Shown here: positions 37,517-59,494 of the stretch, one piece after another | How the letters are laid out: every line of letters begins with the position of its first letter | Position numbering within the stretch: position 1 is the stretch's first letter | Notes under the pieces: generated by a model | Databases searched by the model: none | Told to the model about the DNA's origin: nothing | What the model saw: only the letters and a program-made list of their open reading frames with translations | Assembly (NCBI GenBank): GCA_963664295.1 | Contig: OY760935.1 | Span: 672,001 to 736,000, forward strand | Source: Candidatus Altimarinota bacterium | GTDB taxonomy: Bacteria > Patescibacteriota > Gracilibacteria > CAIRYL01 > GCA-016699755 | Direction of reading: 5' to 3' | Length of the DNA stretch: 64,000 nucleotides | Made by a program: the position numbers and the translations under genes

Positions 37517-37583
37517 TGCTCTATTTTATAAGTTGCAACTTAGGTGCTATCCCTCTAAAATTCACCCTGACTTCTCTTCGTTT

Positions 37584-43637: not shown

Positions 43638-44606
43638 CTAATTAAGTTGCTCTGCAGTAATAATTAACCTATTTTTCGCAGTACCAACAGGAGTACAAGT
43701 CATCAAAGTAGCTATTTTTTGAGAAACTGGCTGATCAAGCACAGTAACATCTTCAGGCTTAACTACTTTTCTTTCGTTAATCTGGTAATCAAACTTCTTT
43801 TGATCCCAATAAATAGTAAAAGCATCACCCACCTCAAGGTCGTGTAGTAAAGCAAAAACATCTTTATATCGACCATTGTCCCAAGGATAATAAGAAGAAT
43901 GACCAGTAATAAACACATTACCGTTTTGCCCCGGAACTGCTGTGCCAGGATAATGCACCACTCCATCTTTTAAAGCATCTTGAATATCATTTTCTAATGT
44001 TTGCCAATCCTCATTGATAAGCGAATTTTCCGGAATTTTAACTATAGGAATATTTTTAGCTATTTTAGGGATAATAATGCGATTTTCCAGAGGAGAAACT
44101 GTGATATTTAAACTTGGAAAAATTTTTCTATTTTCCCTTTTCATACCAGCAGTTGGCAAAAATTTAGGACGAGTTATTTTTTGGTTTGCTGTCACTTGCT
44201 CAAGTCCTATTTGCGTTTCTGTGTATTTATCAGGATTGATTTTTTTGTCTATTATCTGTGAAAAAGCCTGATAATTAAGACCAAAAAATAAAACTGCAAA
44301 AACCGTACCTGCAGTAAGGGTGAATTTAAAAAATTCTGAGATTTTTCCTAATTTTTTACTTTCTTTTGCTTGTTTTATTGGCGCTTGCCATTCTTTTTTG
44401 CGGGTTTTTACTTCTTTTATTATCTTAAATCTACGCTCCAATTCATCTCTTTCTATGTGTGGAATATGCAGAGTTGGCATGTTTGTTAAGTCAATTTGAT
44501 ATGATTGAATTGAGTCTTTCTTGTCTTCTCTTGCTACACGCTTAAAACCCCTTTTTAAAGGGTTTTTAAATATCTTCCGCAAATGTTTATCAAAATCTTT
44601 TTTCAT
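43638..44606 (-). CDS. Sortase (class D/E-like)
   Basis: GVVHYPGTA.PG..GNVFITGHSS, TLMTCTP.G...RL; internal TM anchor. Confidence 0.92.
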   Translation of the reverse strand: MKKDFDKHLRKIFKNPLKRGFKRVAREDKKDSIQSYQIDLTNMPTLHIPHIERDELERRFKIIKEVKTRKKEWQAPIKQAKESKKLGKISEFFKFTLTAGTVFAVLFFGLNYQAFSQIIDKKINPDKYTETQIGLEQVTANQKITRPKFLPTAGMKRENRKIFPSLNITVSPLENRIIIPKIAKNIPIVKIPENSLINEDWQTLENDIQDALKDGVVHYPGTAVPGQNGNVFITGHSSYYPWDNGRYKDVFALLHDLEVGDAFTIYWDQKKFDYQINERKVVKPEDVTVLDQPVSQKIATLMTCTPVGTAKNRLIITAEQLN

Positions 44607-44696
44607 ACTTCATTAGGGTCAAATAATTGTCTCATAAATAACCCTAAAAAGCAACTTAGTCACATTGACACAAGCTATTTTTATGATGCGTAAAAA

Positions 44697-45779
44697 CTAG
44701 AAATAAGCTTTTGGATTTTTCTTTACTCCATTGATCACAACCTCAAAATGAAGATGAATACCTGTTCTGCCATATACCCTACCAGTATTACCCATATAGC
44801 CAATTGGTGTTTTGCGAGATACCTTTTGCCCTTTTCGTACATAAATATCTCTCATGTGAGCATATAAGGTGGTCATGCCATTTCCATGATCAATTACAAC
44901 AACATTGCCATAACCTCCATTCCAACCTGACTCTGCACGAATAACAGTGCCACTTTCTGCTGCCCAAATTGTACTTCCACCAGCTTGCGCAATATCTACA
45001 GCATAATGTCCATAGCGATAACCTTGGGTGTATCTACCCTCACAAGGAAAAAATAAGGTACCATTGTAGGTACCTGTTGCTTGTGATCCTGCTGGTGCGT
45101 TTTTGTATACACCGCCAGCACTTGAGGCAATTGCAACTGGCACTTCTTTTTGAACTCCAGGAATAATAACAGCTTTTCCTGCAATTAATCCTTCTTCTTC
45201 ATCGATATTATTTTGAGCAATAATTTTATCTGCCTCAACTTTATATTCTTTTGCCAAACCAGCCACTGTTTCGTTCTTTTTTACAGTGTGCAAAAGCCCA
45301 TCTACAGGCAATATTTTTAATGTTTGCCCTGGCTTTAGGCTGTCTGGATTAGTTATGTCGTTATTTTGCACAACAGTAGCAACAGAAACACCATAACGAT
45401 AAGCAATACTGGAAACAGTATCACCAGACTCAACAATAATATCAACAACCTGCCCAACTCCTTCCCTGTTTCCTCTGCTGGTTTGAATTTCCGGCTTAAT
45501 TAAAAATCCTTCGTCTGTAAGTGCGATTGTTTCTTTAAAACTTTCTGCTGATGCCTCTTCAGGAAGCCAAAAATCCGCCTCACTCACAAAAAAAGCTGGT
45601 AAAATAGAAGAACTAACAAAAAACAAAACTCCAGCAACAACAACTCGAAAAAAGAAATTTTTTTCACTTGTTGTATAGGGTTTGTAAACTGGTTTTTTGT
45701 GACCCACTTCTTTTTTTATGCCCCTTAAGCGCTGATGGCGCATTTTTCTTGCCAATGTATTTGCTTTTGTAAAAACCAT
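44697..45779 (-). CDS. LysM x2 + M23 metallopeptidase
   Basis: Two LysM repeats; HYAVD, YAHM, HLHFEV. Confidence 0.93.
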   Translation of the reverse strand: MVFTKANTLARKMRHQRLRGIKKEVGHKKPVYKPYTTSEKNFFFRVVVAGVLFFVSSSILPAFFVSEADFWLPEEASAESFKETIALTDEGFLIKPEIQTSRGNREGVGQVVDIIVESGDTVSSIAYRYGVSVATVVQNNDITNPDSLKPGQTLKILPVDGLLHTVKKNETVAGLAKEYKVEADKIIAQNNIDEEEGLIAGKAVIIPGVQKEVPVAIASSAGGVYKNAPAGSQATGTYNGTLFFPCEGRYTQGYRYGHYAVDIAQAGGSTIWAAESGTVIRAESGWNGGYGNVVVIDHGNGMTTLYAHMRDIYVRKGQKVSRKTPIGYMGNTGRVYGRTGIHLHFEVVINGVKKNPKAYF

Positions 45780-45845
45780 ATTGTTTTTCGTCGAGCTATT
45801 TTACTTATTTTTACCAAAAAAAACAAATTTACTCAAGAGAGCTAA

Positions 45846-46520
45846 TTATTTACCAAAATTTCTTTGCACAGATTTATAATAAAAAATGGCTTCTTGAAGG
45901 TCTTTTTCAGTAAATTCAGGCCACATTTTATCCAAAAAATAAAGCTCGGCATAAGCTGATTGCCAAAGCATAAAATTGGATAATCTTTTTTTGCCACCTG
46001 TGCGAATAACAAGATTAATTGCTGGTAAATCCTCAGTATCAAGAAATTTTTCCAGATCTTTTTCTGTTATTTTTTGTGGAATTTTTTTAAATAATTTATT
46101 TACTGCTCTGATTATTTCATCTCTACCACCATAATTGATAGCAGGGCAAAAAATTAATTTTTCACCATTTTTTGTCTTTTCTTCTAGTTCTTTAAGTGCT
46201 TTTTGGCACGACTTGGGCAACTTGCTGACATCACCAAAAATTTTTACTCTTATTCCATTTTTTACAAATTTTTTCCATTTTTTAGCAAATTTCTCCAAAA
46301 GAGCAAAAAGATTATCAAGCTCTTTCTGCTCCCTGTTCATATTTTCTGTAGAAAGAGTATAAACTGTTAATATTTTTATTTCTGGATCATCTGCGCAAAT
46401 TTCCGTAAACATTTCTAAATTTTCCACTCCTTTTTTGTGTCCAAAAAATTTATTTTTACCAAGATTTTTTGCCCATCTCCTGTTGCCGTCCATTATTAAA
46501 CCTATGTGCATCAGAAACAT
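45846..46520 (-). CDS. uppS: Undecaprenyl diphosphate synthase (start 46520 or 46511)
   Basis: HIGLIMDGNRRWA, STEN..R, NYGGRDEI, IRTGG..RLSNFMLWQSAYAE. Confidence 0.95.
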   Translation of the reverse strand: MFLMHIGLIMDGNRRWAKNLGKNKFFGHKKGVENLEMFTEICADDPEIKILTVYTLSTENMNREQKELDNLFALLEKFAKKWKKFVKNGIRVKIFGDVSKLPKSCQKALKELEEKTKNGEKLIFCPAINYGGRDEIIRAVNKLFKKIPQKITEKDLEKFLDTEDLPAINLVIRTGGKKRLSNFMLWQSAYAELYFLDKMWPEFTEKDLQEAIFYYKSVQRNFGK

Positions 46521-46551
46521 TTTAATTGAGTTTAAAAAGAAAATAAACCTC

Positions 46552-48231
46552 TTAAATATTTGATTTTTTAATATCTTTTTTAGCCTCAAAATCAAGCGCC
46601 ATAAAATTAATCTCCAAAGGATAAGCGCTTTCCTCTGTAAATTTTATTTTTGCTTTTAGATAATTTCTTAATGCAATTCGGCTATGTGCAAAACTTTCTT
46701 TTAAGCCATCTGAATCCGCCACAGAGTCAGCATCCGCATTCCAAGTAAAACTTAATTTGTTTTCAATGAATTTATTTTTTTTATCCCAAATATCAAACTT
46801 AAGATTAAACGAACTACTGGAATGTAAACGACCTTTTGCGTAAAAATTTTTACTTTTTTTAATAGTTAATGGTTGGTCAAAATCAATTTCTCCGCTTTCA
46901 TAAGCGCAGGCAATATTTGTACCATTGTCATTAAGACCATCAAAAAGACAATAAACCTTTGAATTAAGAGCAGAACTACCATAAGTATAAGCATCATAAT
47001 TTATAAATCTTTCAATATTCCAACCTGTAATTTCACTCCAAGCATCATTTTCTACATCATAAGCAAGAACAAGATTATTAGTGCTACTATCACGAGCGCA
47101 AGTAATTAAAATCTTGCCAACACCGCTAGCATAAATTAGGTCAGAATTAGAAAAATCAATATCAGAAAAATAATCTCTACCCAAAGCAAAAGAAAGGCCT
47201 CTACTACTTGCTGATGTTTGCTGAAAAACACCAAATTTATTAACATAAAAAATTCCTTTAGAAGTTGAAGCAATTCCGCCTTTATTGCCAAAATTTCCAT
47301 CTTGAAAATTTACATTTGGAACTTCCGCAGTACTAGTCACCATATTAACAACTTTCAAATTAAAACCGGCTTTTCCCTGATCATAAACAGCAACTATTTG
47401 ATTACCAATTGCACCAATTTCCTTTAATTCACCAAAAGAATTATTCTGAAAACTTCCAGGACCACCATAATAAGAAAGATAATAAGTTGGATACCAGGAA
47501 CAAAAAGGCACACTTGAACCAGAATATTTATTGCTCCAAAGTAATTCTGTTTTATTACTACTAGTGTTGCCAGCAAATAATCTATCATCATGAATAAATA
47601 AGATTTTTGCCCTAGGAGAACCTGCGATCTCCGCAATTTGATAGCGTAAATCACCATCAACAGTGGCGCTTCCTCCTTCAGAGTCGGTAATAATCTCGCC
47701 GTCTTGAAATTCACCGCTAATGTTCATCAAAGTTAAAGTTCCGCTAGTCGTAGGTGTACCTGCTATATTTTGCAATAAAACAGCAGTTGCCCCACTTGTT
47801 GCACCTGTTAAAATTTTATTCCCTGTAAATTCGGTTGTTTTGTTTTTATAATCAAGAACTTTTTTGACAACATGAATTCTGTCCTCACCATTACAAATAT
47901 ACAAAAAATCACCATAAACAGCAGAAGAAAATGGCTCACTTGAACTAAAATCACTTTTAATAAGCTCAAAAGAGCTGTCACTGGGATTATAAAACGCCAA
48001 AGTTGTTCCATAAGTTAAAGCAATTTTATTGTCATATTCTTTGAGCATAGTGATTTTTTCACTCACTCCACTAAGCTCAAAAAATTCAGTAATTCCCTTT
48101 CTCTTGCGCAAAATACCATTGCCTTCATAAAATAAATTTTCCAACCTAGTACAATGGTCTTTGTTTATTAAGCTTGGTAAATCTTTTTTGTTTAAGCCTT
48201 TTTTTGTGCCATAAAAAATTTTTTTCTCCAT
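46552..48231 (-). CDS. Putative podoviral nozzle / DNA-stabilisation protein (P22 gp10 / T7 gp12-like beta-propeller)
   Basis: N-terminal GLN...LEN....G.LRKRKG, beta-repeat composition, LAYDVENDAWS; directly follows the adaptor-like gene. Confidence 0.6.
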   Translation of the reverse strand: MEKKIFYGTKKGLNKKDLPSLINKDHCTRLENLFYEGNGILRKRKGITEFFELSGVSEKITMLKEYDNKIALTYGTTLAFYNPSDSSFELIKSDFSSSEPFSSAVYGDFLYICNGEDRIHVVKKVLDYKNKTTEFTGNKILTGATSGATAVLLQNIAGTPTTSGTLTLMNISGEFQDGEIITDSEGGSATVDGDLRYQIAEIAGSPRAKILFIHDDRLFAGNTSSNKTELLWSNKYSGSSVPFCSWYPTYYLSYYGGPGSFQNNSFGELKEIGAIGNQIVAVYDQGKAGFNLKVVNMVTSTAEVPNVNFQDGNFGNKGGIASTSKGIFYVNKFGVFQQTSASSRGLSFALGRDYFSDIDFSNSDLIYASGVGKILITCARDSSTNNLVLAYDVENDAWSEITGWNIERFINYDAYTYGSSALNSKVYCLFDGLNDNGTNIACAYESGEIDFDQPLTIKKSKNFYAKGRLHSSSSFNLKFDIWDKKNKFIENKLSFTWNADADSVADSDGLKESFAHSRIALRNYLKAKIKFTEESAYPLEINFMALDFEAKKDIKKSNI

Positions 48232-48236
48232 AAAAA

Positions 48237-48833
48237 TCAGTAAAAATCACCACAAGAAACATGAATTAGGGGAATATTTCTGTTATAAGTGGAAAATAAA
48301 TTTTCTAATATTTTTTTTAATCTATTTTGAGAATTTTCTTCGTCTTCAAGCTCCTCATCATCAATTGCAAAAAATTGATCTAAAGCTTGTTCATAAAAAA
48401 TTTTAAACTCATAATCACCAGTTAATGTGTCTGTATCTGCATCTAGCTCAGCTATATTTGGTATATATCTAAGCAAAAAGCTACCATTTAAATTGCCAGT
48501 AAAATGAACTTTATCGCCAGCCAAATAAAAACCTGGAGCACTTGCTCCATATTCAGTGGTGAAAAATTTTGAAACAGGATCACCAGCAGAATTAACAGAA
48601 AAAAAACCACAATTCAGACTGTTAATATGAGCAAAATCACTTGGTAAATCATATTCAACAGTACCACCCGAAACAGAATATGATTGAGTTTTAATAAATT
48701 TTTCCGGCTCAATTCTTACAAGCTGTTCATAAAGCCATTTTTCTGCATAATTAAGCCATTTATAAAATTTTTCATCTGTAATATTTTCGCCTTTATAGTC
48801 CTCAAAGGCATTTCTAAGCTCTAAAACATTCAT
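48237..48833 (-). CDS. Putative phage head-tail adaptor (tail tubular A / gp4-like)
   Basis: M...EL...D..F..WLN.A, G..EYDLPSDF, LRYIP...L..D.D motifs typical of adaptors. Confidence 0.65.
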   Translation of the reverse strand: MNVLELRNAFEDYKGENITDEKFYKWLNYAEKWLYEQLVRIEPEKFIKTQSYSVSGGTVEYDLPSDFAHINSLNCGFFSVNSAGDPVSKFFTTEYGASAPGFYLAGDKVHFTGNLNGSFLLRYIPNIAELDADTDTLTGDYEFKIFYEQALDQFFAIDDEELEDEENSQNRLKKILENLFSTYNRNIPLIHVSCGDFY

Positions 48834-48840
48834 AAAAAAA

Positions 48841-48870
48841 CAAAAAAAGATCAGTTCATCTAATCTTTTT
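48841..48870 (-). terminator. Leader terminator directly before the adaptor gene
   Basis: Minus strand AAAAAGATTAG-ATGAA-CTGATCTTTTT then TTGTTTTTTT-ATG. Confidence 0.55.
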
Positions 48871-48913
48871 ATTCATTTTAATATTCTCTGCGTTTTTTTA
48901 TGTTTATATTGTT

Positions 48914-48942
48914 ATTTTATCAAATCTAGATAAAAATCACAA
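48914..48942 (-). promoter_or_regulatory. sigma70 promoter of the adaptor-nozzle module
   Basis: TTGTGA-17 nt-TAAAAT with extended -10 TG; sequence-similar to the 53837-53865 promoter. Confidence 0.6.
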
Positions 48943-48977
48943 ATTTTTTTTCGCACTTTTTTGGCGCAAAAATTTTT

Positions 48978-49703
48978 CTATTTAAATTTTTCTCTCAAAA
49001 TATCCGCTGTCTTATGAACCAAAGATTGAATTCTTTTTCCAATAGAATTTACAATTTTTTGCTGATTATTTTTTAATTTTTCTGCAAAATTCCAAACAAG
49101 TGATAAATTTTTGAGTGCATTTTGCAAATCGTTGTCTAAATTTTTATCCAAAAAATTTTCAATTCCGGCTTTTACTGCATTTCCAATTAGATCAGATTTG
49201 TTTTTTAAAACATCTAAATCGCTAACATTAGACAAAAATCCACATTCTATTAAAACAGCCAAAGGCGCAGTATCATGCACAATTCCCAATTTACCATAAC
49301 GACTTAATCTCTCGCTTTTTGCTCCCCTATTTTTTAAGCCGGTTTTTTGGCAAATTTCCTTCAAGATATTTTCCGCCAATTTTTTGGACTCCCCGGAATT
49401 GTGATAATAAAAAGCTTCTGCACCTTTGGCCAAACTGCCAGCAGAATTACAATGAATACTAACAAGCAAAGAATTTGTGCAATCCAAACCAAAAGAATTT
49501 ATTTTTTTAATTTTTTCCGCCAAGGTTAAATCTTCATCAACGCCAATATAAACAACATTTTCTCCAAAAATAGAGCGGGTAATTTGTAAATTTAATTCCC
49601 TTTCTGTTGTGCCATCTTTGGCAATTGCACCAGGGTCATTTTTTTTAAAAAAATTTCCACTTTTTCCATGACCTGCCACAATAAAAATTTTTTCAGTTTT
49701 CAT
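48978..49703 (-). CDS. N-acetylmuramoyl-L-alanine amidase (Amidase_3), endolysin-like
   Basis: AGHG..DPGA..E, SIHCNS, LIECGFLSN; ATG at 49703 overlaps the upstream TGA. Confidence 0.9.
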   Translation of the reverse strand: MKTEKIFIVAGHGKSGNFFKKNDPGAIAKDGTTERELNLQITRSIFGENVVYIGVDEDLTLAEKIKKINSFGLDCTNSLLVSIHCNSAGSLAKGAEAFYYHNSGESKKLAENILKEICQKTGLKNRGAKSERLSRYGKLGIVHDTAPLAVLIECGFLSNVSDLDVLKNKSDLIGNAVKAGIENFLDKNLDNDLQNALKNLSLVWNFAEKLKNNQQKIVNSIGKRIQSLVHKTADILREKFK

Positions 49704-49942
49704 GCTCCAAAAACAAAAGTAATAAAAGTCCAAACAACACCAATCAAAGAGCCGGAAATCGCAACACCACCAACAATAAAAGCTTTCCAAAGTTCAAGTT
49801 TTTTTACTCTTTGGTTCATTTTTTCCATACTCTTTGCCATTTCCCGATGTACCTGATTATTTTCATCAAATTTGCTGTTTATATGTTGTTTTAAGCCATC
49901 AATTCGTTCTGCAATTTGTCCTAAATTTAACTTTTTCGCCAT
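49700..49942 (-). CDS. Small coiled-coil + C-terminal TM protein, holin/XhlA-like
   Basis: 80 aa; coiled coil ending RVKKLE then FIVGGVAISGSLIGVVWTF; coupled to the amidase. Confidence 0.55.
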   Translation of the reverse strand: MAKKLNLGQIAERIDGLKQHINSKFDENNQVHREMAKSMEKMNQRVKKLELWKAFIVGGVAISGSLIGVVWTFITFVFGA

Positions 49943-50511
49943 TTTGTAGATGATAAATTTCCAATAAAATTAAGATCGTCTCTTTCTGATTCACTTGCCG
50001 GAGTTGTTTCTGAGGCAATAAGCCCATCAAAAACAAAAGCTCCACAGCGTTCGTGAATTTCCCGGCTTAATTCCGAGCAATAATATTTATTTTTATCATG
50101 CGCCACAACAAAGCTCTGTTTTTGCAAAAATTTTAATTTCGCACAAACAACAGCTCTCCAAATAAGTCCCACAAAATCATACAAAAAACCTTTTTTAACA
50201 TATTGCAAAGCAGTTTTGCGCACATTACGAAGTCGCCAAACAGAACGAAAAACATCATGCGATCCAGAGCGCCTGCGCACATCACGCAAAGAAACAATGC
50301 GCACACCAGAGCAATAATCATCTTTGAAAAAAAACTTACGCACAGAAAAATCACTCTCAAGACATTTTCCTCTGCCAATATACAAAATTGCATGGGAATA
50401 AGGGGAGTTTGTGCCCCAGCGAATTAAGCGAGAAAGTAAACTTTTTCCGTCTCGATATAAAAACAAATCACCAACCCGCAAATTCCGCACCAAAGTTTTA
50501 TTATTCTCCAT
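49927..50511 (-). CDS. Permuted papain-like NlpC/P60 amidase (YiiX/YebB family)
   Basis: GDLFL..LSRLIRWGT.S.YSHA (His first), Y.YD, YYCSEL (Cys later). Confidence 0.85.
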   Translation of the reverse strand: MENNKTLVRNLRVGDLFLYRDGKSLLSRLIRWGTNSPYSHAILYIGRGKCLESDFSVRKFFFKDDYCSGVRIVSLRDVRRRSGSHDVFRSVWRLRNVRKTALQYVKKGFLYDFVGLIWRAVVCAKLKFLQKQSFVVAHDKNKYYCSELSREIHERCGAFVFDGLIASETTPASESERDDLNFIGNLSSTKWRKS

Positions 50512-50854
50512 TTTGAATTACAAAAGAGTTTTTTAAAATAAACTCATTAAGACCATTGGCATCTTGTTCAACAAAACCACCAACAGAAGAAACAAGCTCA
50601 ACAATTTCTTCATATTCTTTGCTGGTAATAATAATTTCTCCATTTATTTCTCTTTCTATCTTTAAGTCGTCAATAATTTGTTCTGCTCTTTTGTGACAAA
50701 AAATAAGCCAATTTTCACCATTTTTTTCTGCCAATAATGGCTCACCCAAAACCACAGAAAAATCATATCTTTTTTGATTGTGCATAAAGCCAGCATTTTC
50801 CATTATTCGCAAATCAGCTTCTTTGTTCGCAGGAACAGCAATAAATACATTCAT
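50501..50854 (-). CDS. Hypothetical protein in the virion cluster
   Basis: 117-aa frame overlapping the next gene. Confidence 0.65.
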   Translation of the reverse strand: MNVFIAVPANKEADLRIMENAGFMHNQKRYDFSVVLGEPLLAEKNGENWLIFCHKRAEQIIDDLKIEREINGEIIITSKEYEEIVELVSSVGGFVEQDANGLNEFILKNSFVIQNGE

Positions 50855-50913
50855 AAAAAATAAGAAAAATTAAAAATTTTCATCTTCATTAATTTCCCAA
50901 TAAAACAAGGCAT

Positions 50914-51636
50914 TTAAGATAAATAGCTACCAGAACTCAAAGCATTATAAAAATTAGCAACACGCAAAGCAGAAAAATATTCAGGATCAATGCGAAAATA
51001 ACGACATTCTCCTTGCAAGTAATAATTTGAACTAGAATCTTTGCCAATAGCAAAAGCATTAGTGGAACTAGTGTCATAAGCAACACCTGTCTGACTATCA
51101 CTACCAAATTCAGCGCCATTGATATAAATTTTGACACCAGAAGAAACGCTACCGGTGATAGTAAGAACAAAAGGAGTGTCAGCAGAAATATAATCAGAAA
51201 CAGAAGAAATAGTAATTAACTTAACAGCGCCATCAAGAGAATATTGGAATTTAATCTCATCAGTAGAAGCATAATAATTACAGCGTGGATAAGCACTATA
51301 GCCAAAAAGAGCATAGAAAAAATTATGATTTACAGAAAGGCTATCAAGAGAATAAATACCCGTAATGCAAAAATTACTCAATGTTCCCCAAGGTACACTT
51401 TCGCCAGTTGGTTTTTTTAAATAATCATCGCCAGCAAAAGAATAGCCAATAGTAGCAACAGTGGTATCATTTGTGTCAGCCTCAGATGTAGAGCCATTTT
51501 GTATGGTGATATTATTTTTACTTCTATCCTGCCAAACTTGCTCATTATTACCAACTTTGCCATCTAAAAAAACAATAGAATTATCTTTTCTTAAACTACT
51601 ACTAATGCCTATGTTTAATGTTTTTGCAATATCCAT
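50914..51636 (-). CDS. LamG/ConA-like jellyroll protein, candidate head-spike fibre
   Basis: WQDRSKN, YSFAGDDY, VKIYINGAE, FAIG...Y.L.G...FRI, LRVANFY; follows the spike-base gene. Confidence 0.7.
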   Translation of the reverse strand: MDIAKTLNIGISSSLRKDNSIVFLDGKVGNNEQVWQDRSKNNITIQNGSTSEADTNDTTVATIGYSFAGDDYLKKPTGESVPWGTLSNFCITGIYSLDSLSVNHNFFYALFGYSAYPRCNYYASTDEIKFQYSLDGAVKLITISSVSDYISADTPFVLTITGSVSSGVKIYINGAEFGSDSQTGVAYDTSSTNAFAIGKDSSSNYYLQGECRYFRIDPEYFSALRVANFYNALSSGSYLS

Positions 51637-51640
51637 AAAA

Positions 51641-51901
51641 TTAATAAATAGCAATAATGTGTTGAGCAGTAGTGTCAGTTGCTTTTACACGAGTTGTATT
51701 AACAGGCAAAAAAGAACCATCAGGCACATTCTTAAAAACAACAGCTGAACTTTCAGAATTTAAAACTGAAATATCTCCCCCACTACCAACATAAAGAGAA
51801 CGAGCAGAAATGCTCAAATCATTGTCATCATCAGGTGTCACAGAAGCAAATTGATAAGCTGGTGACACAGAAATTTTTTGATCAGTCACTGGATTAGACA
51901 T
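51641..51901 (-). CDS. Head spike base protein, Rcc01079 (RcGTA GhsA)-like family
   Basis: SPA..F..VTPDD..DL....RSLYVG.GGDI.V.......V.F.NVP.G..LPV...RV.AT.TTA..I.A.Y, 86 aa. Confidence 0.8.
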   Translation of the reverse strand: MSNPVTDQKISVSPAYQFASVTPDDDNDLSISARSLYVGSGGDISVLNSESSAVVFKNVPDGSFLPVNTTRVKATDTTAQHIIAIY

Positions 51902-51923
51902 AATTAAAATAAAAAATGAAAAA

Positions 51924-52070
51924 TTATTTTTTAGGGGGTCTGCCTCTTTTTTTAGGCATAAATTTCATTTTAATAATTTTTGCTTCATCATTTTTAATCA
52001 TTTTTTTTGCTTTCCAAGCGGGCACTGCAACAATGCGCCCAAAGCGATTTTTTATTTTTTGTGTTTGCAT
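51924..52070 (-). CDS. 48-aa basic protein with C-terminal AT-hook-like KKRGRPPKK
   Basis: Below the ORF-track cut-off; manual translation MQTQKIKNRFGRIVAVPAWKAKKMIKNDEAKIIKMKFMPKKRGRPPKK*. Confidence 0.6.
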   Translation of the reverse strand: MQTQKIKNRFGRIVAVPAWKAKKMIKNDEAKIIKMKFMPKKRGRPPKK

Positions 52071-52077
52071 AGTTTTA

Positions 52078-52111
52078 TTAAAAAATCATGACGGGCATAT
52101 AAAAATGCCCG
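52078..52111 (-). terminator. Hairpin/terminator after the major capsid gene
   Basis: CGGGCAT-6 nt-ATGCCCG stem (52092-52111), T-run shortly after on the minus strand. Confidence 0.55.
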
Positions 52112-52122
52112 CACAAAATTCT

Positions 52123-52989
52123 TTAAACAGAAATTTGAACATCAATAAGACGATTAGCACCTTCTGTAAAAGTTTTTACACCAAATTTAGCCTGAGATTT
52201 AAAAAGATAAACAAAATCATCTCTAAATTCAGGAGGAGTAATTTGCACTTTTGGTTTAATATTAGCCGCAAAACAAATAGGCTTACCACCACCAGCAAGA
52301 GCATGTTTAGTGCCAGTAGCAGTGACAAGATTGTTAGAACAATAAATTTTAATACCAGCAACAGTACCAACATAACCTCTAGTCACAACATTATCACCCA
52401 TTTGACCAGATCTTAAAACAGCTTCAGATTGCAATAAAAGAGCTTTTTCTACAGGTGAAATAATCAAAAATCTATCATCTTGCGGAACATTATTCACATC
52501 AAGAATTTGCCCAATACCAACAATAAATTTATAAATATTGTCTTTAGTAAGAACAGCCGGGTTAGTAGCAGTACCACCAACAAGCTCAGCATCAGCAGTA
52601 TGTTCAGCATTAGCATACTCAGCCATAATCGCATCATCATAAGCACTAGCAAAACTCTCAGCCGCATCAGCAATAAATTGATCCTTAGGACTAACTTTCA
52701 TGTATTTAACATCTTCTTCAGAAAGTTTCACAGCCCAAGCTTTACGAGTATCAAGAGAAAAAGTTTCATCAGCAACAGTAAGATCCTGCACAGTAGGAGA
52801 AGAATAAGAAGTCTCAAGATTACCAACAGAGATTTTATTAACACGAGGAAAATGCACAGTATCATTGCCATCAAAACTTCCTTCAAATTTTGTGTTAGCA
52901 ATATCCATACCAACAAACCTCTCACGAAGAACCTCCTGCAAAACCGAACTCCAAGCCTCAGCATTCAAACCCGCAACATTATTAGCCAT
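52123..52989 (-). CDS. Major capsid protein (HK97 fold, P22-coat/podovirus-like)
   Basis: E.WS..L...L, FEG.....DTVHFPR, A..A...D..I, LD..NVP.DDRFLIISP, G.VGTVAG.KIY.SNNL, FGVK; strongly T-ending codons. Confidence 0.85.
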   Translation of the reverse strand: MANNVAGLNAEAWSSVLQEVLRERFVGMDIANTKFEGSFDGNDTVHFPRVNKISVGNLETSYSSPTVQDLTVADETFSLDTRKAWAVKLSEEDVKYMKVSPKDQFIADAAESFASAYDDAIMAEYANAEHTADAELVGGTATNPAVLTKDNIYKFIVGIGQILDVNNVPQDDRFLIISPVEKALLLQSEAVLRSGQMGDNVVTRGYVGTVAGIKIYCSNNLVTATGTKHALAGGGKPICFAANIKPKVQITPPEFRDDFVYLFKSQAKFGVKTFTEGANRLIDVQISV

Positions 52990-53053
52990 AATAAAAATAG
53001 AAAAAATAAAACAAAAAAATATTCATATTCAAATTACTCAGTCAAAAACAAAC

Positions 53054-53686
53054 TCAAGCAAAACGCACTTCACCAAAACGATTTTCACATTCAGAAATAT
53101 ATTTTTTTCTTTGATAATCAGTGAACACATCAAAATCATCTGTATTGACCAAATAAAATTCATCAGCAGTATTCACATTTGACCTAGGGGGCATAGTTGC
53201 AACAGAACGCAATTCCTCCCTTTTTTTGTCCGCCTCATTGCGAATACCAAGAATAGCAATAGATTTAGCAAGAGCAGTCTCAAAAGGCACGCCATAATCA
53301 ATCAGCGTCGTCATCTCCTGAGAAAACTTCTCGCCATATCTTGCATCAAACTCAGTCTCCGAAAGCCCGCTTTTTTCACGAGCTACCTGCAAAGCAGACT
53401 GATAATTAAAATTTTCACTTTTTTGCTCCGATTTCTGATCTTCTACTTTTAAAATTGTGCCAATTTCTCTCTGTACCCACTCCGGCGCAGAAGAAATATC
53501 TTCATCATTTTGCGCTTTTTCAAGCCATTTATTAACAGTCGCCTCTCGCACAATTTTTCTATCCTCAAGTTTTTTTTCATTATTATCACAAGGTTCATCG
53601 CCAGCATCAACGGTGTCCTCAACTGACTCATCACAAGGTGGCAAAACCTGCTCATCTTCCATGGTGGTCAAATTTTCTTTTTCCAT
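53054..53686 (-). CDS. Putative capsid scaffolding protein
   Basis: Acidic disordered N-terminus, helical body, short C-terminal helix; immediately upstream of the capsid gene. Confidence 0.6.
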   Translation of the reverse strand: MEKENLTTMEDEQVLPPCDESVEDTVDAGDEPCDNNEKKLEDRKIVREATVNKWLEKAQNDEDISSAPEWVQREIGTILKVEDQKSEQKSENFNYQSALQVAREKSGLSETEFDARYGEKFSQEMTTLIDYGVPFETALAKSIAILGIRNEADKKREELRSVATMPPRSNVNTADEFYLVNTDDFDVFTDYQRKKYISECENRFGEVRFA

Positions 53687-53785
53687 AAAAATCGTGAAAA
53701 ATCTTAAAAATCAAATGGCAGTAAAATACTGCAAATTCTCATTTTAATTTTTTTCTACCGACTTAAATCAAATGAAACATAAAAA

Positions 53786-53813
53786 CAAAAAAGATTGGCA
53801 AAAATCCAATCTT
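53786..53813 (-). terminator. Leader terminator of the scaffold-capsid module
   Basis: Minus strand AAGATTGG-ATTTTTG-CCAATCTT-TTTTG. Confidence 0.65.
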
Positions 53814-53836
53814 CATTTTTATCATCATTTTATTTA

Positions 53837-53865
53837 ATTATATCAAATTCTACAGAAAAACACAA
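53837..53865 (-). promoter_or_regulatory. sigma70 promoter of the scaffold-capsid module
   Basis: TTGTGT-17 nt-TATAAT with extended -10 TG. Confidence 0.7.
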
Positions 53866-53877
53866 ATTTTTTTCATT

Positions 53878-54408
53878 TTACTTTTGCGCCAAAAATTTTT
53901 TCACCTTCACAAAAATAATCTTCAAAAGCTCAATTACTGCAGAAAAGACAAAAATCAAAAGTGTATAATAAAAACATGCAAGCGCAAAAAGCTGACCTTC
54001 ATAATCATAAGCTGGCTCAAAAGCATGGTACCCACTGCCATCAGGAAACACTATTCTTCCTGTAGGCGTATACTCAGCGCCATAAGAAAGAAAAATTTGA
54101 TCATGAAGATAGCCAAAAAACCAAGCAAAAATCAAAACAAAAACAAATGAAACCAAAAAAGAGTTAGTTATATTTTTTACTGGCTTATAAATGAAACTTA
54201 AAGTAAAAACTGGCAACCATGCGAGAAACATAATTACAAAAAAAGCCAAAGACATTGCAATAAAAAATAAAATATCGTCCTTCAGCGGAAGTGAACGATA
54301 CTTGATCGCCCCAATACACAAAACAATAAAAATAGGTGCATAAAACCCAAGCAAACTTCTCCATGCTTGATCTTTTTTACCAATATTGTTTTTAATTTTG
54401 TTAGTCAT
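53878..54408 (-). CDS. Four-TM membrane protein, candidate immunity protein 2
   Basis: Paralog of the upstream gene (WLPVFTLSFIYKPVKNITNSFLVSF; GAEYTPTGRI). Confidence 0.7.
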   Translation of the reverse strand: MTNKIKNNIGKKDQAWRSLLGFYAPIFIVLCIGAIKYRSLPLKDDILFFIAMSLAFFVIMFLAWLPVFTLSFIYKPVKNITNSFLVSFVFVLIFAWFFGYLHDQIFLSYGAEYTPTGRIVFPDGSGYHAFEPAYDYEGQLFALACFYYTLLIFVFSAVIELLKIIFVKVKKFLAQK

Positions 54409-54907
54409 AAAATTTTTTCTTTAAATAATTAAAAACACTACCTAGGCAAGAAAACACAAAAACCTGCAAAATAAACAAAATAAGAACAATAATAAAGCCG
54501 TCTCTATCAACTTCGGCAGATGGGCTATAAAAATAAAGATTATGCTCCATAGAAAAACCGATCCTGCCGGAAGGCGTAAAAACTGCCCCATGCCAAAGCC
54601 AAATTTTTTTATAAAGAAAAACACTTAAATAATAAAACAAAGAAATAAATGCAAAAGAAACAACAAAAGAATTAACAATGTTTCTGGCAGGTTTATAAAA
54701 AACACTTAAAATAAATATAGGAACCCAAACAAAAAGACAATAATAAGATAAAAAAAATAAAAATGACCAATAATTAACATCAAATCCTGCCCTAAATAAA
54801 TTGTCAAAATTTACAACCCAGGGCAATAGAGCAAAAGCAAGTGCTCCCCTAATTGATTTGAAGCTATCTCTAATAAAATTCTCAATTTTTTTAGTTTCGC
54901 TGGTCAT
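54401..54907 (-). CDS. Four-TM membrane protein, candidate immunity protein 1
   Basis: WVPIFILSVFYKPARNIVNSFVVSF; GAVFTPSGRI; start overlaps the toxin 3' end. Confidence 0.7.
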   Translation of the reverse strand: MTSETKKIENFIRDSFKSIRGALAFALLPWVVNFDNLFRAGFDVNYWSFLFFLSYYCLFVWVPIFILSVFYKPARNIVNSFVVSFAFISLFYYLSVFLYKKIWLWHGAVFTPSGRIGFSMEHNLYFYSPSAEVDRDGFIIVLILFILQVFVFSCLGSVFNYLKKKFYD

Positions 54908-55982
54908 AAAGTTGGTAACCAAAATCTAAATAATATGAATCACCAGGGTTATCTTTTCCTAAATTATCAATTGCTGCTGCATCTTTAATTTTATCGTAAT
55001 CAAGATCAAAATGATTAGCAGTATATCCAATAATCATATTACCTGGTGCATCATATCTTATCAAATCTCCATTAAATATATATGAATAATAATATCGTTC
55101 GATTTTATCACCACTGCCTGTTCCTGATTTTTGACCAAAAATTGGATGATAAGAATGAACATAATCATAGGGACCATTGCGACGAAATAGACCTAAAAAA
55201 TCGCCCAAGCTTAATAAGCTTGGTATGCCCGGTGTCGGCTTATCAAAAACTAATATTGAAAATACTTTATTAGGCGTATAAGGGCGCATAAATAATATCC
55301 TCAAGTCTCTAATTGCCTTTTCGCATTCCTCAAAAAACAAATCCTGAATATCAAAAGGGCAAACATCATTTAGTCCACAAAAAGTAAATCTGCCTACTAA
55401 ATCTTTAGGATCAATCGAATTGCTCTCATCAAAAAAGCTCACTCTGACAATTGTCTCCCATGTAGTTTGAATTCCAAGGACTTTATTGACAATATTAGTA
55501 ATGGCTTGTGAAGGATTATCCACCTCCAAAATCCCAGGTAAAATCTCACCAGTGTAAGGATTATAAAAATCAATCTTGCCTCCTTCTGGCTTAAAAAATT
55601 CCTCTTCACCTGCAGATAAATTCATTTGAACTTCTGCATTTGTGCTTGTATACAAGCCGTCCACAGTCATCTTGTCTCCATTATCATCCAAAACAAAAGT
55701 GCCATCAGGCATATAAATATTACCATTTTCATCAATAGACCTACCTGCATCTTGCAACATTTCAACAATATCCTCCTTTGTTTTTGCATCTTTTTTAATC
55801 TTTTCCTGTAAAACATCACAAGGAATACAAGCGGGAGAATAAATCCACATTTCAGTACCGTCATTGCAAGTGACGCCATCATCAGAAATTCCCCCATGAT
55901 AAGAACAGCAACCACGCATAGAACCTCCGGCAGAGGCTAGTTGTGTTTTTCTGTGAGATGTTAATTTAAGCTCTTCAGACAT
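54891..55982 (-). CDS. Putative polymorphic toxin: Cys/His-rich N-terminal motif + C-terminal Ntox44-like domain
   Basis: N-terminal RGCCSYHGG..CNDG; C-terminal NGPYDY..YIFNG....YDAPGNMIIGY....DNPGD...GY..Y matches the Ntox44 GNxxxG/DxxxD pattern. Confidence 0.65.
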   Translation of the reverse strand: MSEELKLTSHRKTQLASAGGSMRGCCSYHGGISDDGVTCNDGTEMWIYSPACIPCDVLQEKIKKDAKTKEDIVEMLQDAGRSIDENGNIYMPDGTFVLDDNGDKMTVDGLYTSTNAEVQMNLSAGEEEFFKPEGGKIDFYNPYTGEILPGILEVDNPSQAITNIVNKVLGIQTTWETIVRVSFFDESNSIDPKDLVGRFTFCGLNDVCPFDIQDLFFEECEKAIRDLRILFMRPYTPNKVFSILVFDKPTPGIPSLLSLGDFLGLFRRNGPYDYVHSYHPIFGQKSGTGSGDKIERYYYSYIFNGDLIRYDAPGNMIIGYTANHFDLDYDKIKDAAAIDNLGKDNPGDSYYLDFGYQLYDQRN

Positions 55983-56000
55983 AATAAAATCTAAAAATTT

Positions 56001-56327
56001 CTAAAACCTTGGAGATAAATTTTCAATTTCTTCGTCAAGCCCTCTTTCCAACTGATCTTCCTCAAACGCAGTGCGAAAAAAAGCAATCAACTCACCCATT
56101 CCTCGCTTAAATTCACGCAAATCTTTTTTAAAATTCTTCTGTGACTGTAAATAAACCAAAACCTCCATTAAATACAGCAAATCACTCTCATTTTCTTGCC
56201 AAAATTTTGCAAAAATCCTGCGTTTTAATTTACTTCCCAAAATAGACTCCGAATAGGTTTCTTCATTTTTATTTTTTGTAGCAAAAAGCCGTCTCAAAAA
56301 ACCAATTTTTTTTAACATATTCAACAA
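56001..56327 (-). CDS. Small helical hypothetical protein downstream of the portal gene
   Basis: 108-aa frame; position typical of portal-associated small genes. Confidence 0.6.
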   Translation of the reverse strand: MLNMLKKIGFLRRLFATKNKNEETYSESILGSKLKRRIFAKFWQENESDLLYLMEVLVYLQSQKNFKKDLREFKRGMGELIAFFRTAFEEDQLERGLDEEIENLSPRF

Positions 56328-56335
56328 ATAAAAAA

Positions 56336-57874
56336 TTATTTAATTTCCAAATCGCCTTCTTCTAAAGGCAAACCAAGAATTTGCGATCTTTTTATAATCG
56401 CTTTCTTATGCGCCAAAGAGCCTGTTGGCAAAACTTTAAGCATCTCATCAAGACGCGCCAACTCCGCAGTATAACTTGGATAAACACCACTACGAGAATC
56501 AATTTCAATACTAAATTCGTTTTCAGAAATTAACTTACTAACCATGCCCAAAGTCACTCCCTCTGCGACTAAAGTCTGGTCATCATGTGCTACAAAATCA
56601 CGAATTGAAGTCAAAACACACTCAATAGCAAAACGGATTTCCTCTGCATTTTGTTCCATAATCTGACGAACAAATGCATTAGAATTTTCCTCTCTCAAAA
56701 GAGCATGTCTAGCTGTGTCATTATTAGAAACTGATAAGTCATCAAGGTTAATACCAATTCTTTTTACAATTTGATCATATTTTTCAAACAAGCGCTCAAA
56801 CTCAGAAGTAAGCTGTTCGCCAATAATAGACTTAATTTTTCCATATTCTAATTGTCCGTTGTCATCAGCCTCAACAGGAATAATGCCCATTTCTCCGCGA
56901 CTTTTTGCCTCCAAAGCTTTATAAACCCAATTTTGAAACTCAGCAATTTTGCTCTTTTTCATAGTGATTGTATATAGCGGATCAACACGATTAGAAATTG
57001 CAGATATTGCCATATTCATCAACTTTCTTGCCTCAATATGCAGGTTATAAAGTAAATTTCCCAAACCAGCGTTATAAAAACCTTTCAAAGAAGAAAAACA
57101 AACAAAATGCAAAAGTGGCAAATAAGGATTACTATTTTTGTCCCAAAAAGGATAATTATCACCACAAGCCTTTTTTAAGCAAATAGCATTACTACCAGCC
57201 AAAACAAAATACTGTTTTTTACTTTTCGAAAAATAATGCACAAGCTCAACAAAGTCATCTTTATCATCAGAGCTTTCTCTGCCAGCAAATGGCACTCTGC
57301 CTAGTAAAACTTTTTTTGCTTCAGGAAAAAGCTGATGAAATTCATCAATTGAATAAAGATAAGAAAAAGCAATTTCATCAGCATCTAAACTTCCTCCCTC
57401 GGAACGAAGCTCACTGGCTTGCGGGTCAATCCAAACATCATTAATGGAGCAAGTTTCAAAACAAATTGGATTCCTAGCAGTGCCAGCGCCAATTTTGATA
57501 AAGGCATCACCAAAAAGAAGACCACGAAAAAAAGCACCTGATTTTTCAGTAAAAACCCTGGAAAAACCGCTCCTACTAAGCACAAAATCAAGACCTTTCC
57601 TTACTGCCTCATGCGAATTGCTATCAGCTAAATTACTCTTAAGACGAAAGTCCAATAGCTTCATTTTTGCCACAGTTTTCCAAAGAGCTTGAAAAAGCAA
57701 AAATCCATTTAATGTTTTTTTGGGACTTTTTTTCTCTGTTAAAAATTGATCTTGATATAAAACCTGTATTTTTGCACATTCTGCTGTTTTTTCATTTTTC
57801 TGAGCATTGGCTCTTTGCACAAGATTATCAACAAGCAAAAACTGCTTATTATCTGACAAATTTTCAATTTGCAT
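56336..57874 (-). CDS. Putative portal protein (P22/podovirus-like); start 57874 or 57913
   Basis: ~512 aa; LLFGDAFIK, VWIDPQA, NYPF...LP..H, GFY..GLG..L, M.I..I...V.P, G......TA; first gene of the head cluster. Confidence 0.75.
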   Translation of the reverse strand: MQIENLSDNKQFLLVDNLVQRANAQKNEKTAECAKIQVLYQDQFLTEKKSPKKTLNGFLLFQALWKTVAKMKLLDFRLKSNLADSNSHEAVRKGLDFVLSRSGFSRVFTEKSGAFFRGLLFGDAFIKIGAGTARNPICFETCSINDVWIDPQASELRSEGGSLDADEIAFSYLYSIDEFHQLFPEAKKVLLGRVPFAGRESSDDKDDFVELVHYFSKSKKQYFVLAGSNAICLKKACGDNYPFWDKNSNPYLPLLHFVCFSSLKGFYNAGLGNLLYNLHIEARKLMNMAISAISNRVDPLYTITMKKSKIAEFQNWVYKALEAKSRGEMGIIPVEADDNGQLEYGKIKSIIGEQLTSEFERLFEKYDQIVKRIGINLDDLSVSNNDTARHALLREENSNAFVRQIMEQNAEEIRFAIECVLTSIRDFVAHDDQTLVAEGVTLGMVSKLISENEFSIEIDSRSGVYPSYTAELARLDEMLKVLPTGSLAHKKAIIKRSQILGLPLEEGDLEIK

Positions 57875-57969
57875 AAAAATAGATAAAAATAAAAAACTTA
57901 TTTTTATGCTCATTTTTATAAATTTATATTTATCTATTTATTAAAACTAATTCACACAAATCTAATTAA

Positions 57970-57995
57970 CAAAAAAAGAAACTCTGCGATTTCTT
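57970..57995 (-). terminator. Leader terminator of the portal module (may also terminate MATE)
   Basis: Minus strand AAGAAA-TCGCAGAG-TTTCTT-TTTTTG; weak AT-rich stem. Confidence 0.45.
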
Positions 57996-58015
57996 CATCT
58001 TCATATTTCAAATAA

Positions 58016-58044
58016 ATAATACCAAAAAAAGCCCAAAAAATCAA
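58016..58044 (-). promoter_or_regulatory. sigma70 promoter of the portal module
   Basis: TTGATT-17 nt-TATTAT with extended -10 TG. Confidence 0.6.
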
Positions 58045-58050
58045 GCAAAT

Positions 58051-59391
58051 TCACTCTCCAAGCTGTTTTATGTGATAATTTGTATAAAAAATAGTAATCA
58101 CAGTAGTCACCCAATCAATACAAAAAATACCCAACCAAATCGCTAAAATTGGAAAATCAAAAACCTTAACCAAAACATAATAAACAGGCAAAGGTAAAAC
58201 AATTTGACGCAAAAAACTAATATAAAAAGCATAAGCCGGTTTTTTAATTGCCTGCAAAGTAGCCATATTCAAAGCCAAAAAAACATAAGACCAAGCAGAA
58301 AGAGACAATATTTTTAAGGCAATTCCGCCAATTTCAATAACTTTTTGATCATCACTAAAAAAGCTCATCAAATTATATGAAGCAAAAAAGATAAAAAGCA
58401 CTGAAAACAGCATAATAATAGAACCATATTTTATAGCTGTTTTGCGCACTTCGTTCATTCTTTGATAATTTCCCGCACCATTATTCTGACCAACAATAGC
58501 CAAAACAGCTATATTAAGACCCATAATAGGCAAAAGAAAAATCTGTTCAGCACGAGTCATAATTCCATAAGCCGCCACTGCCTCTTCTCCGTAAAATTTT
58601 AAAAAATAAGTAATTACAAAAATACCAAGAGCAATAGTCATCATGTTTACACTAGAAGGAAAACCTTGCTTGATAATTTCCCAATAAGCTTCTTTTCGAG
58701 GGCGCAAGTCAGATAATTTTTTAATATGCAAAAACCCCATTCTATAGCTTGTAATAGTAATATAAATAGTATTGATCGCCATAATCAAAACAGTAGCCAA
58801 AGCAACTCCTGAAATCCCCAAAGCAGGCACGCCAAAACCACCATACAAAAACCAAGGATCAAAAATTAAATTAAGAAAAAAGCCTAAAACCAATAAATTA
58901 CGATAAACTTTAGTATTACCAGAGGCAATAAGAGTGCTGTTAATAGAATGAGTAGTAATAAAAAAGAAAGTACCAAGAAAAATAATATTTATATAAGAGA
59001 GAGCTAAATCAAAAGATGCTTGACTTGTTGCAAGTAATTTAAATAAATATGGTGCTAAAAAAAGCCCAAAAAACATTAAAAAAACAGCAAAAATCATTCC
59101 AAAAGAAACAACTTGCGTTGAAAAAAGTCTGGCTTTTTCTTTTTCTCCAGCGCCCAAAGCATTTGAAATCAATGCAGATCCACCAGTAGAAATACCATTC
59201 GCAAAAGACAAAATAATAAAAAACACTGGAAAACTAATAGACATAGCCGCCAGCGCCTCAGTGGACATTTGCCCCGCAAAATAAGTATCCACCACGTTAT
59301 ACATGGTCTGAAAAAAGAAACCAATACTCGCAGGCATTGCTATTTTGGCGATCAAAGATGAAATTTTTCCTTCTACAAGTTCTGCTTTCAA
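58051..59391 (-). CDS. MATE family efflux transporter
   Basis: IAMPA.....Q.MYNVVDT, NLIFDP, GISGVALAT, VGQNNGAGN; about 12 TM. Confidence 0.94.
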   Translation of the reverse strand: MKAELVEGKISSLIAKIAMPASIGFFFQTMYNVVDTYFAGQMSTEALAAMSISFPVFFIILSFANGISTGGSALISNALGAGEKEKARLFSTQVVSFGMIFAVFLMFFGLFLAPYLFKLLATSQASFDLALSYINIIFLGTFFFITTHSINSTLIASGNTKVYRNLLVLGFFLNLIFDPWFLYGGFGVPALGISGVALATVLIMAINTIYITITSYRMGFLHIKKLSDLRPRKEAYWEIIKQGFPSSVNMMTIALGIFVITYFLKFYGEEAVAAYGIMTRAEQIFLLPIMGLNIAVLAIVGQNNGAGNYQRMNEVRKTAIKYGSIIMLFSVLFIFFASYNLMSFFSDDQKVIEIGGIALKILSLSAWSYVFLALNMATLQAIKKPAYAFYISFLRQIVLPLPVYYVLVKVFDFPILAIWLGIFCIDWVTTVITIFYTNYHIKQLGE

Positions 59392-59494
59392 ATATATATA
59401 AAAAGAGCTGAATAATTATATCAAAACAAACAAAAAATAAAACCTTCAAAAACATAATTAAAATAGAAAACTTATAATTAAAAATTTTTCTAGG

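Follow-up and report, generated by a model that had tools for sequence, protein, structure and literature searches.

Gene transfer agents (GTAs) that are encoded at several loci, such as RcGTA, VSH-1 and BaGTA, have their head, packaging, lysis and regulator genes at separate chromosome sites. Phage MuF toxins are encoded within the head module, downstream of the portal gene; they join a conserved N-terminus to an exchangeable C-terminus, have an immunity candidate directly behind them, and are proposed to be delivered inside the capsid (Jamet et al. 2017, PMC5576092; Zhang et al. 2012, PMC3482391). The locus described here resembles both. It lies in a 64,000-nucleotide stretch (the window) of a Candidatus Altimarinota bacterium of the class Gracilibacteria (contig OY760935.1, positions 672,001 to 736,000), whose genome, G000, is one 1.215-Mb contig, and consists of a gene for a 363-aa protein and two genes for membrane proteins, imm1 and imm2, set among phage head genes. 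We conclude that the three genes are very probably a toxin-immunity cassette, and that the phage-derived gene set to which they belong is likely a dispersed particle system kept by the host and not an ordinary prophage. In the openly accessible literature we found no description of the N-terminal family of this toxin or of its C-terminal unit, a LysM-like domain followed by an Ntox44-type domain (the tip), and no toxin-immunity cassette described for a GTA or a GTA-like element of Patescibacteria.

The polymorphic toxin candidate is encoded at positions 54891-55982 of the window, on the minus strand as are all window genes and domains given below, and the protein has no signal peptide or hydrophobic segment (maximum hydropathy 0.98). 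It carries the motifs GNMIIG (G314-G319), DNPGD (D344-D348) and DYV (D273-V275) that were named in the original prediction, an earlier sequence-based note on this DNA; the note had let the protein stop at GYQLY, and it runs four residues further, to GYQLYDQRN. The end of the toxin gene shares 17 nt with the 5' end of imm1 (54401-54907, start ATG at 54907, 168 aa), which in turn shares 8 nt with imm2 (53878-54408, 176 aa), and the two membrane proteins are paralogs (38% identity over 95 aa, E=1e-20), all as had been foreseen. The first of them had been expected to have four transmembrane segments. Hydropathy gave four for imm2, and for imm1 three clear segments with a fourth, N-terminal one below the threshold. 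By the positive-inside rule, imm2 has an acidic, conserved 39-residue loop that is predicted to lie outside. An immunity gene directly downstream and overlapping fits the layout of polymorphic toxins, and by its position imm1 is the likely cognate immunity gene, its neutralisation of the toxin being a prediction. Neither membrane protein had a homolog among 5.8 billion proteins, and their atlas matches were all below 0.9. Prediction of a complex between imm1 and the Ntox44 domain scored 0.12 against a mark of 0.32, which is evidence neither way. One contig of sequencing run X3, possibly the source sample, spans 44000-59573 with 0 differences, and the depth of X3 across the stretch, although contig depth is a weak measure, gave no sign of amplification.

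Ntox44 was described as an all-alpha domain with DxK, GNxxxG and DxxxD motifs, and the table of that survey lists for it neither an immunity protein nor MuF or capsid export (Zhang et al. 2012, PMC3482391); PMC9134191 and PMC7790226 restate its nuclease label and add nothing to it. The Ntox44-type domain of the 363-aa protein comprises residues ~208-363 (54894-55361). A phmmer search among 1.84 billion proteins yielded a set of 37 other proteins, 32 of which match PF15607 (Ntox44), 26 above its cut-off, in agreement with the original prediction of an Ntox44-like C-terminus. A hidden Markov model built from 28 homologs, with the query excluded, gave the query 72.4 bits, whereas the best of 200 shuffles reached 7.8, a test that is partly circular as the homologs had been found with the query. 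Of the 37 homologs, 29 were aligned; all of these have D273, G314, N315, D344 and D348, 28 have G319, and the query keeps all six residues. In the Pfam search that the original prediction had proposed, the whole 363-aa protein had no match, and its last 109 aa scored 12.8 bits against PF15607 (E=0.16), below the cut-off of 24, a point against the reading given below. GNxxxG, DxxxD and homology to the family were thus found, whereas the Pfam cut-off was not reached and DxK is incomplete. Judged from its sequence, the C-terminal domain is derived from Ntox44. A profile search of 401 genomes of the phylum found Ntox44 in two; the match in one of them (G087) was below the cut-off, lay within a large surface protein and was dropped. 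The matches of another profile search of the phylum were mostly to the Rhs part of the profile.

The structure of residues 136-363 was modelled with a pLDDT of 88.6. In this model the Ntox44-type domain consists mainly of helices, with a single short beta hairpin, and no solved relative was found for comparison. Foldseek found no match for the tip fold, the best match of a wide search (Z 5.4) was a designed protein, and TelC, a lipid II phosphatase that the tip might have resembled, did not appear in the fold-search lists. Ahead of the Ntox44-type domain, at the start of the exchangeable tip, is a LysM-like domain (residues ~140-207; 55362-55565), recognised from the model, structure matches and an alignment to the homolog P0002. 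Residues ~143-207 matched LysM-containing structures over 45-53 residues with Z of 3.5-4.2 and rmsd of 2.3-3.0, and the aligned region of P0002 matches Pfam LysM above the cut-off. In Rhs homologs the LysM-like and Ntox44 domains begin as one unit directly after the DPxG site, and the tip is therefore mobile. In eight of the 37 homologs the tip, complete or in part, follows a MuF-like N-terminus (sub-cut-off MuF matches), and therefore phage head proteins already use it. The Rhs toxins of Patescibacteria-type genomes share the tip module from residue ~140 onward; they deliver it on an Rhs cage, behind DPxG, whereas the carrier here is a 111-residue domain. In another Patescibacteria genome (G257, contig C2; loci L029, L034 and L036) we observed three tandem Rhs-like orphan cassettes of ~445 aa.

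That carrier, the shared N-terminal domain (residues ~20-111; 55650-55925), consists of a GCCSxHGG..CxDG Cys/His motif and a helical/beta part, and is our candidate particle-loading domain. It is common to the proteins P0009 and P0002 and to the toxin of a genome from a sister genus of the same family (G004); P0003 has the motif part only. The tips behind it differ. P0009 shares 50% identity over residues 19-112 (E=5e-13), and the third-ranked atlas match of its tip is a colicin M cluster (0.95, with 210 of 256 features; 47% of the members carry PF14859); the tip has a DxYDF motif like that of colicin M. The G004 toxin shares 42% over residues 21-104 (E=1e-4); its C-terminal domain is papain-like (Lnb_N, E=0.013, below the cut-off), and a one-helix DKNYY protein is encoded downstream. 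P0002 has LysM and a more distant Ntox44 domain, and P0003 a close tip. An exchange is also visible between strains. An 871-nt contig of the seawater run X4 (depth 4.6) matches 55650-56419 with 13 differences; it agrees with the first 111 toxin codons throughout and then continues with 98 unlike letters, the 30 letters after the break reading, by hand, as ten sense codons that resemble the P0002 linker. X4 also holds a copy of imm2 with a 270-nt in-frame skip (depth 2.9). Both observations come from single contigs at depth <5, which limits the strain evidence. Given the low depth, the lack of X4 cover over 54217-55418 was not used as evidence. The conserved N-terminus with exchanged C-terminal domains is the pattern of a polymorphic toxin, and the invariant C-terminus that would have spoken against the original prediction is not seen among the relatives.

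The position and layout of the cassette are those of MuF toxins, and delivery inside the capsid is proposed here as it is for them, yet several features set it apart. As had been noted from the sequence, the protein has no recognisable MuF domain (PF04233 and PF06152, no match at E<=0.5), although the MuF3 and MuF4 profiles of Jamet et al. could change that, and it does not have the CxxC..HPNC motif of its MuF-like homologs. Its immunity candidates are multi-pass membrane proteins of >150 aa and duplicated. The cassette lies, as predicted, in the portal-to-scaffold interval, between the portal gene and a 108-aa gene upstream and the scaffold and major capsid genes downstream, and not directly behind the portal gene: the 108-aa gene (56001-56327) intervenes, so that the toxin gene is the second after the portal gene. 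Finally, no intact temperate phage carries it: the carrier is a dispersed, probably host-kept element of the Gracilibacteria class whose adaptor is of the podovirus type.

The phage-derived genes in the window lie between genes for a MATE transporter and uppS. Upstream of the cassette, the P22-like portal gene (56336-57913) was assigned from a weak profile match (PF16510, E=0.0072), position and conservation; it is 55% identical to that of G004 and has four further homologs; three metagenome portals are known at 56-65%. The conserved 108-aa gene after it is 45% identical to its G004 counterpart. Downstream of the cassette follow the scaffold gene (53054-53686; assigned from position and acidic make-up, without a profile match; 42% to G004) and the major capsid gene (52123-52989; phrog_267, E=7e-35; 72% to G004). 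The GC3 of the capsid gene, 0.163, is below the 5th percentile (0.172) of the genome's 579 long ORFs, which may reflect high expression. A free phage (L014, IMGVR_UViG_3300005095_000366) has the order portal, 94-aa gene, scaffold and capsid, with the 94-aa gene and the scaffold in the same slots as here and no insert at the portal/scaffold junction; the cassette was therefore added there, and G004 is split at the same junction. L014 reads only with code 25 (TGA=Gly), and its capsid protein is 45% identical to that of the window, which uses code 11, so that both codes of Gracilibacteria occur within one capsid family. When viral and metagenome contigs were scanned for the locus with portal alignments, nothing was found, and an alignment of the tip had no match among viral contigs. 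The toxin homolog P0003 is encoded on a Logan contig of 4,524 nt, and so is the portal P0042; the two contigs are probably identical, which suggests that the genes are linked.

After the capsid gene come three variable genes (50501-51901), for an 86-aa protein of a tail-fibre family, a 246-aa LamG-like protein and a 117-aa unknown protein. They are absent from this slot in G004 and are candidate receptor-binding parts. After its nozzle gene (L005, 5225-6940), G004 has a gene for a fibre-like protein of 571 aa (DUF3383, BNR, lectin-like) for which we found no homolog in G000; the candidate receptor-binding parts would thus vary between the two genomes. The lysis region (48978-50511) encodes a C92 permuted papain-like protein, an 80-aa holin-like protein, recognised by size and position, and an Amidase_3 endolysin. 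An SU10-type adaptor of 198 aa (PF24175, E=2e-9) and a 559-aa putative podovirus nozzle complete the set (46552-48833); the nozzle was assigned from position and size, without a nozzle profile match, and the two are 40% and 38% identical to their G004 counterparts. Elsewhere in the window, intergenic short repeats at 37516-38500 and 59400-59900 give recurring spurious ORFs with an identical translation; the depth of X3 spikes above 100 at 59025-60226, and the repeats look like a multicopy miniature family.

A first reading of the locus as a head module with no terminase was dropped once phrog_2 revealed an intact 433-aa large terminase gene at 1,199,821-1,201,122, 470 kb from the head genes. 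Searches of G000 with PF03237, PF17289, PF04466, PF03354 and TIGR01630 had found no terminase, the one PF03237 match being a UvrD-like helicase, nor had phmmer with the other terminases of G004 or two motif screens. The terminase gene lies behind a 79-aa ORF and a DUF5659 gene, in a cassette (L063, contig C1, 1199821-1202893) that also holds a divergent S24 repressor gene and a second S24-like ORF. This cassette is outside the window and adjoins a type IV pilus gene cluster. G004 has the orthologous cassette on contig C45, its terminase being 67% identical. Its other pieces are equally scattered: the portal gene and a 103-aa gene are on C29, C44 carries the genes from scaffold to nozzle with the fibre-like gene, and C62 carries the toxin pair, which follows greA close to the end of the contig. 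These four contigs each place their piece among different host genes. In the gap between greA and the toxin gene (L011, 1690-1984) we noted a tRNA-like sequence, recognised by eye, and a TTGACA/TATAAT promoter-like site; similar sites precede the portal and scaffold pieces, and seven upstream regions held no common 10-12-mer. Two further terminases of G004 belong to other elements. The one on C52 (L041/L042) is split, in an unrelated integrated element with a serine-recombinase-like gene, and the one on C46 (L037), the third in the genome, accompanies an SPP1-like portal.

The divergence of these genes between G000 and G004 is like that of host genes. The module has a median identity of 53% (n=7), compared with 58% for host orthologs (n=40, from fetched regions; p=0.28), and a pN/pS of 0.26-0.60, compared with 0.22-0.50 for host genes, at synonymous sites that are saturated or nearly so. 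In both genera every ORF that the two genomes share is open. Neither locus shows an integrase or a replication module; the genome-wide searches covered neither replication genes nor serine recombinases, and the only tyrosine recombinase found, at 1,158 kb, is far from both loci. The distribution speaks against a widespread GTA: the capsid gene is present in 2 of 61 genomes, the portal gene in 2 of 20 of the order, and the terminase gene in 3 genomes out of 151 of the class, one of these having it at only 36%. As in a GTA, intact head, portal, terminase and lysis genes are carried in the host chromosome at separate sites, with no integrase beside them and with host-like divergence in two genera, which would fit vertical inheritance, yet only 2 of the 8 family genomes have the system. 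It differs from RcGTA, VSH-1 and BaGTA in its P22/SU10-like ancestry, narrow distribution and toxin-immunity cassette in the head operon. The original prediction had overlooked the dispersed, probably host-kept system with its detached terminase, as well as the LysM-like domain of the toxin.

From the domain order, the exchange of tips, the intact head, adaptor, lysis, terminase and repressor genes and the host-like divergence in two genera, all of which can be read directly from the genomes, we infer a mechanism whose functional steps would be as follows. The S24 repressor would gate expression, giving a lytic burst in some cells. The N-terminal Cys/His domain would do the job of MuF and load a few toxin copies into the head, and the detached terminase would pack DNA, presumably host DNA because no phage replicon was seen at either locus. 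Holin and amidase would free the small, short-tailed particles. On a recipient, the toxin would exit via portal and nozzle and be held on peptidoglycan by its LysM-like domain, where the Asp-rich Ntox44 site, probably metal-binding, may hydrolyse an envelope substrate, for example a lipid-linked wall precursor. The two membrane proteins would protect producers and kin via their outward loop. We lean slightly towards the toxin being particle cargo. The whole chain, in which a host-kept, GTA-like particle delivers a polymorphic toxin whose likely target is the envelope, is a serious possibility to which we give somewhat less than an even chance. More tentative still, and on balance doubtful, is the general proposal that in a Patescibacteria lineage a domesticated podovirus has become an armed GTA-like particle with a new, non-MuF loading domain and exchangeable envelope toxins (Ntox44-LysM, colicin-M-like and papain-like), and that this branch of Ntox44 is an envelope enzyme and not an RNase.

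Several observations weigh against this reading, and we give them here with the explanations that they favour. Capsid cargo usually follows DNA into the cytoplasm, and it is conceivable, though unlikely, that the same particle-delivered cassette has as its tip a TseR-like RNase injected into the cytoplasm, with the membrane proteins blocking uptake or binding on the inner face. TseR of Yersinia pseudotuberculosis, a PAAR-Ntox44 protein, is a cation-dependent RNase according to a review (PMC13577199), and is named likewise in 10.64898/2026.05.10.723254. The protein resembles members of the Ntox44 family, TseR included, in GNxxxG, DxxxD, the first Asp of DxK, a fold modelled as mostly helical and a C-terminal position on a carrier; it differs in having another carrier than the PAAR of TseR, a valine for the DxK lysine, a sub-cut-off score and a preceding LysM-like domain. 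Zhang et al. (2012, PMC3482391) file Ntox44 under predicted RNases, note that membrane immunity proteins may block toxin uptake, and give a two-helix membrane immunity protein for CdiAC, a toxin likewise filed under predicted RNases. Membrane immunity alone is therefore no proof of an envelope target, and in view of CdiAC and TseR the argument that the original prediction had drawn from it is insufficient by itself.

Other lines of evidence do support the envelope target of that prediction and speak against an RNase. These are the LysM-like domain in the tip, although its structure-match Z-scores are low; the alternative tips that look envelope-directed, although their colicin-M and papain labels come from weak matches; and the conserved imm2 loop that is predicted outside. 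We also compared other Ntox44 proteins in five contexts, taken one per organism from 31 records (excluding a row for C. botulinum), and in a sixth, G389; all six have a signal-like segment, peptidoglycan-binding domains or a membrane-anchored neighbour. In Enterobacter and Pantoea the Ntox44 gene overlaps a gene whose product has one N-terminal hydrophobic segment (barely over the threshold in Enterobacter), in C. tyrobutyricum Ntox44 is fused to peptidoglycan-binding and glycoside-hydrolase-like domains, the N-termini of the Bacillus toyonensis and Paenibacillus phage Bloom proteins look like signal segments, and in G389 a membrane protein gene follows that of an Rhs protein with Ntox44. On these lines of evidence together, we consider an action on the envelope marginally the better supported.

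A further explanation, to which we assign a low probability, is that the toxin domain is weakened or dead here and that the cassette persists as immunity against related tips of other strains. The DxK lysine, present in 28 of the 29 aligned homologs, is V275 in the query, and the following residue, N in 22 of the 29, is H276. A sequencing error at V275 is unlikely, as the GTT codon is at least two bases from a lysine codon and X3 shows no difference. Loss of the toxin would also be in keeping with the duplicated immunity genes and the turnover seen in the shortened imm2 of the strain copy. Against it, the ORF is intact, the remaining motif residues are all kept, the tip is modelled with good confidence, and a full-length Rhs protein, P0008, is the one other sequence that does not have the lysine. 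The allele in this genome is, in our view, reasonably likely to be active.

We find it similarly improbable that the cassette is real and is no particle cargo, being released by lysis or contact, or serving as an addiction module, merely within the head operon. The toxin pair of G004 lies apart from the head genes and has a promoter-like sequence of its own upstream. The Cys/His motif by itself occurs widely in prophages, in small proteins with a signal peptide (8 of 8 loci), and is therefore no capsid-specific mark, and the N-terminal domain, modelled with low confidence (pLDDT 63.7), had no viral fold match at E<=0.001. These small proteins (L043-L050) carry GCCSxHGG..CNDG..SPSCxC in unrelated prophages, several beside repressor or integrase genes and others among structural genes. 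Particle cargo is favoured over this explanation by the lack of a signal peptide in the toxin, by the probable linkage to a portal in a third lineage, by the MuF-like proteins that bear the same tip, and by the N-terminal family itself, which among five whole genomes searched occurs only in the two with particle genes. It is very unlikely that an ordinary MuF-slot prophage has decayed here into dispersed pieces and ceased to make particles, for although the system is limited to 2 of 8 family genomes, the lineage is heavily rearranged and no internal ejection proteins were identified, the shared ORFs have stayed open at near-saturated synonymous sites with host-like pN/pS, and the terminase, repressor and lysis genes are intact.

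If a host-kept particle does carry this toxin, its genes represent a second carrier family for capsid-slot toxins beside MuF, in a particle system retained by the host, and would join two ideas that have so far been kept apart, gene transfer agents and phage-derived weapons. The target of Ntox44 is now directly testable, since the gene contexts say envelope and the one reported activity says RNase. If the particle is indeed an armed GTA, it would kill cells that are not kin, or break into host cells, and pass DNA to immune kin. Ultra-small, host-dependent bacteria, about which little is known in this respect, would thereby have a concrete means of antagonism.

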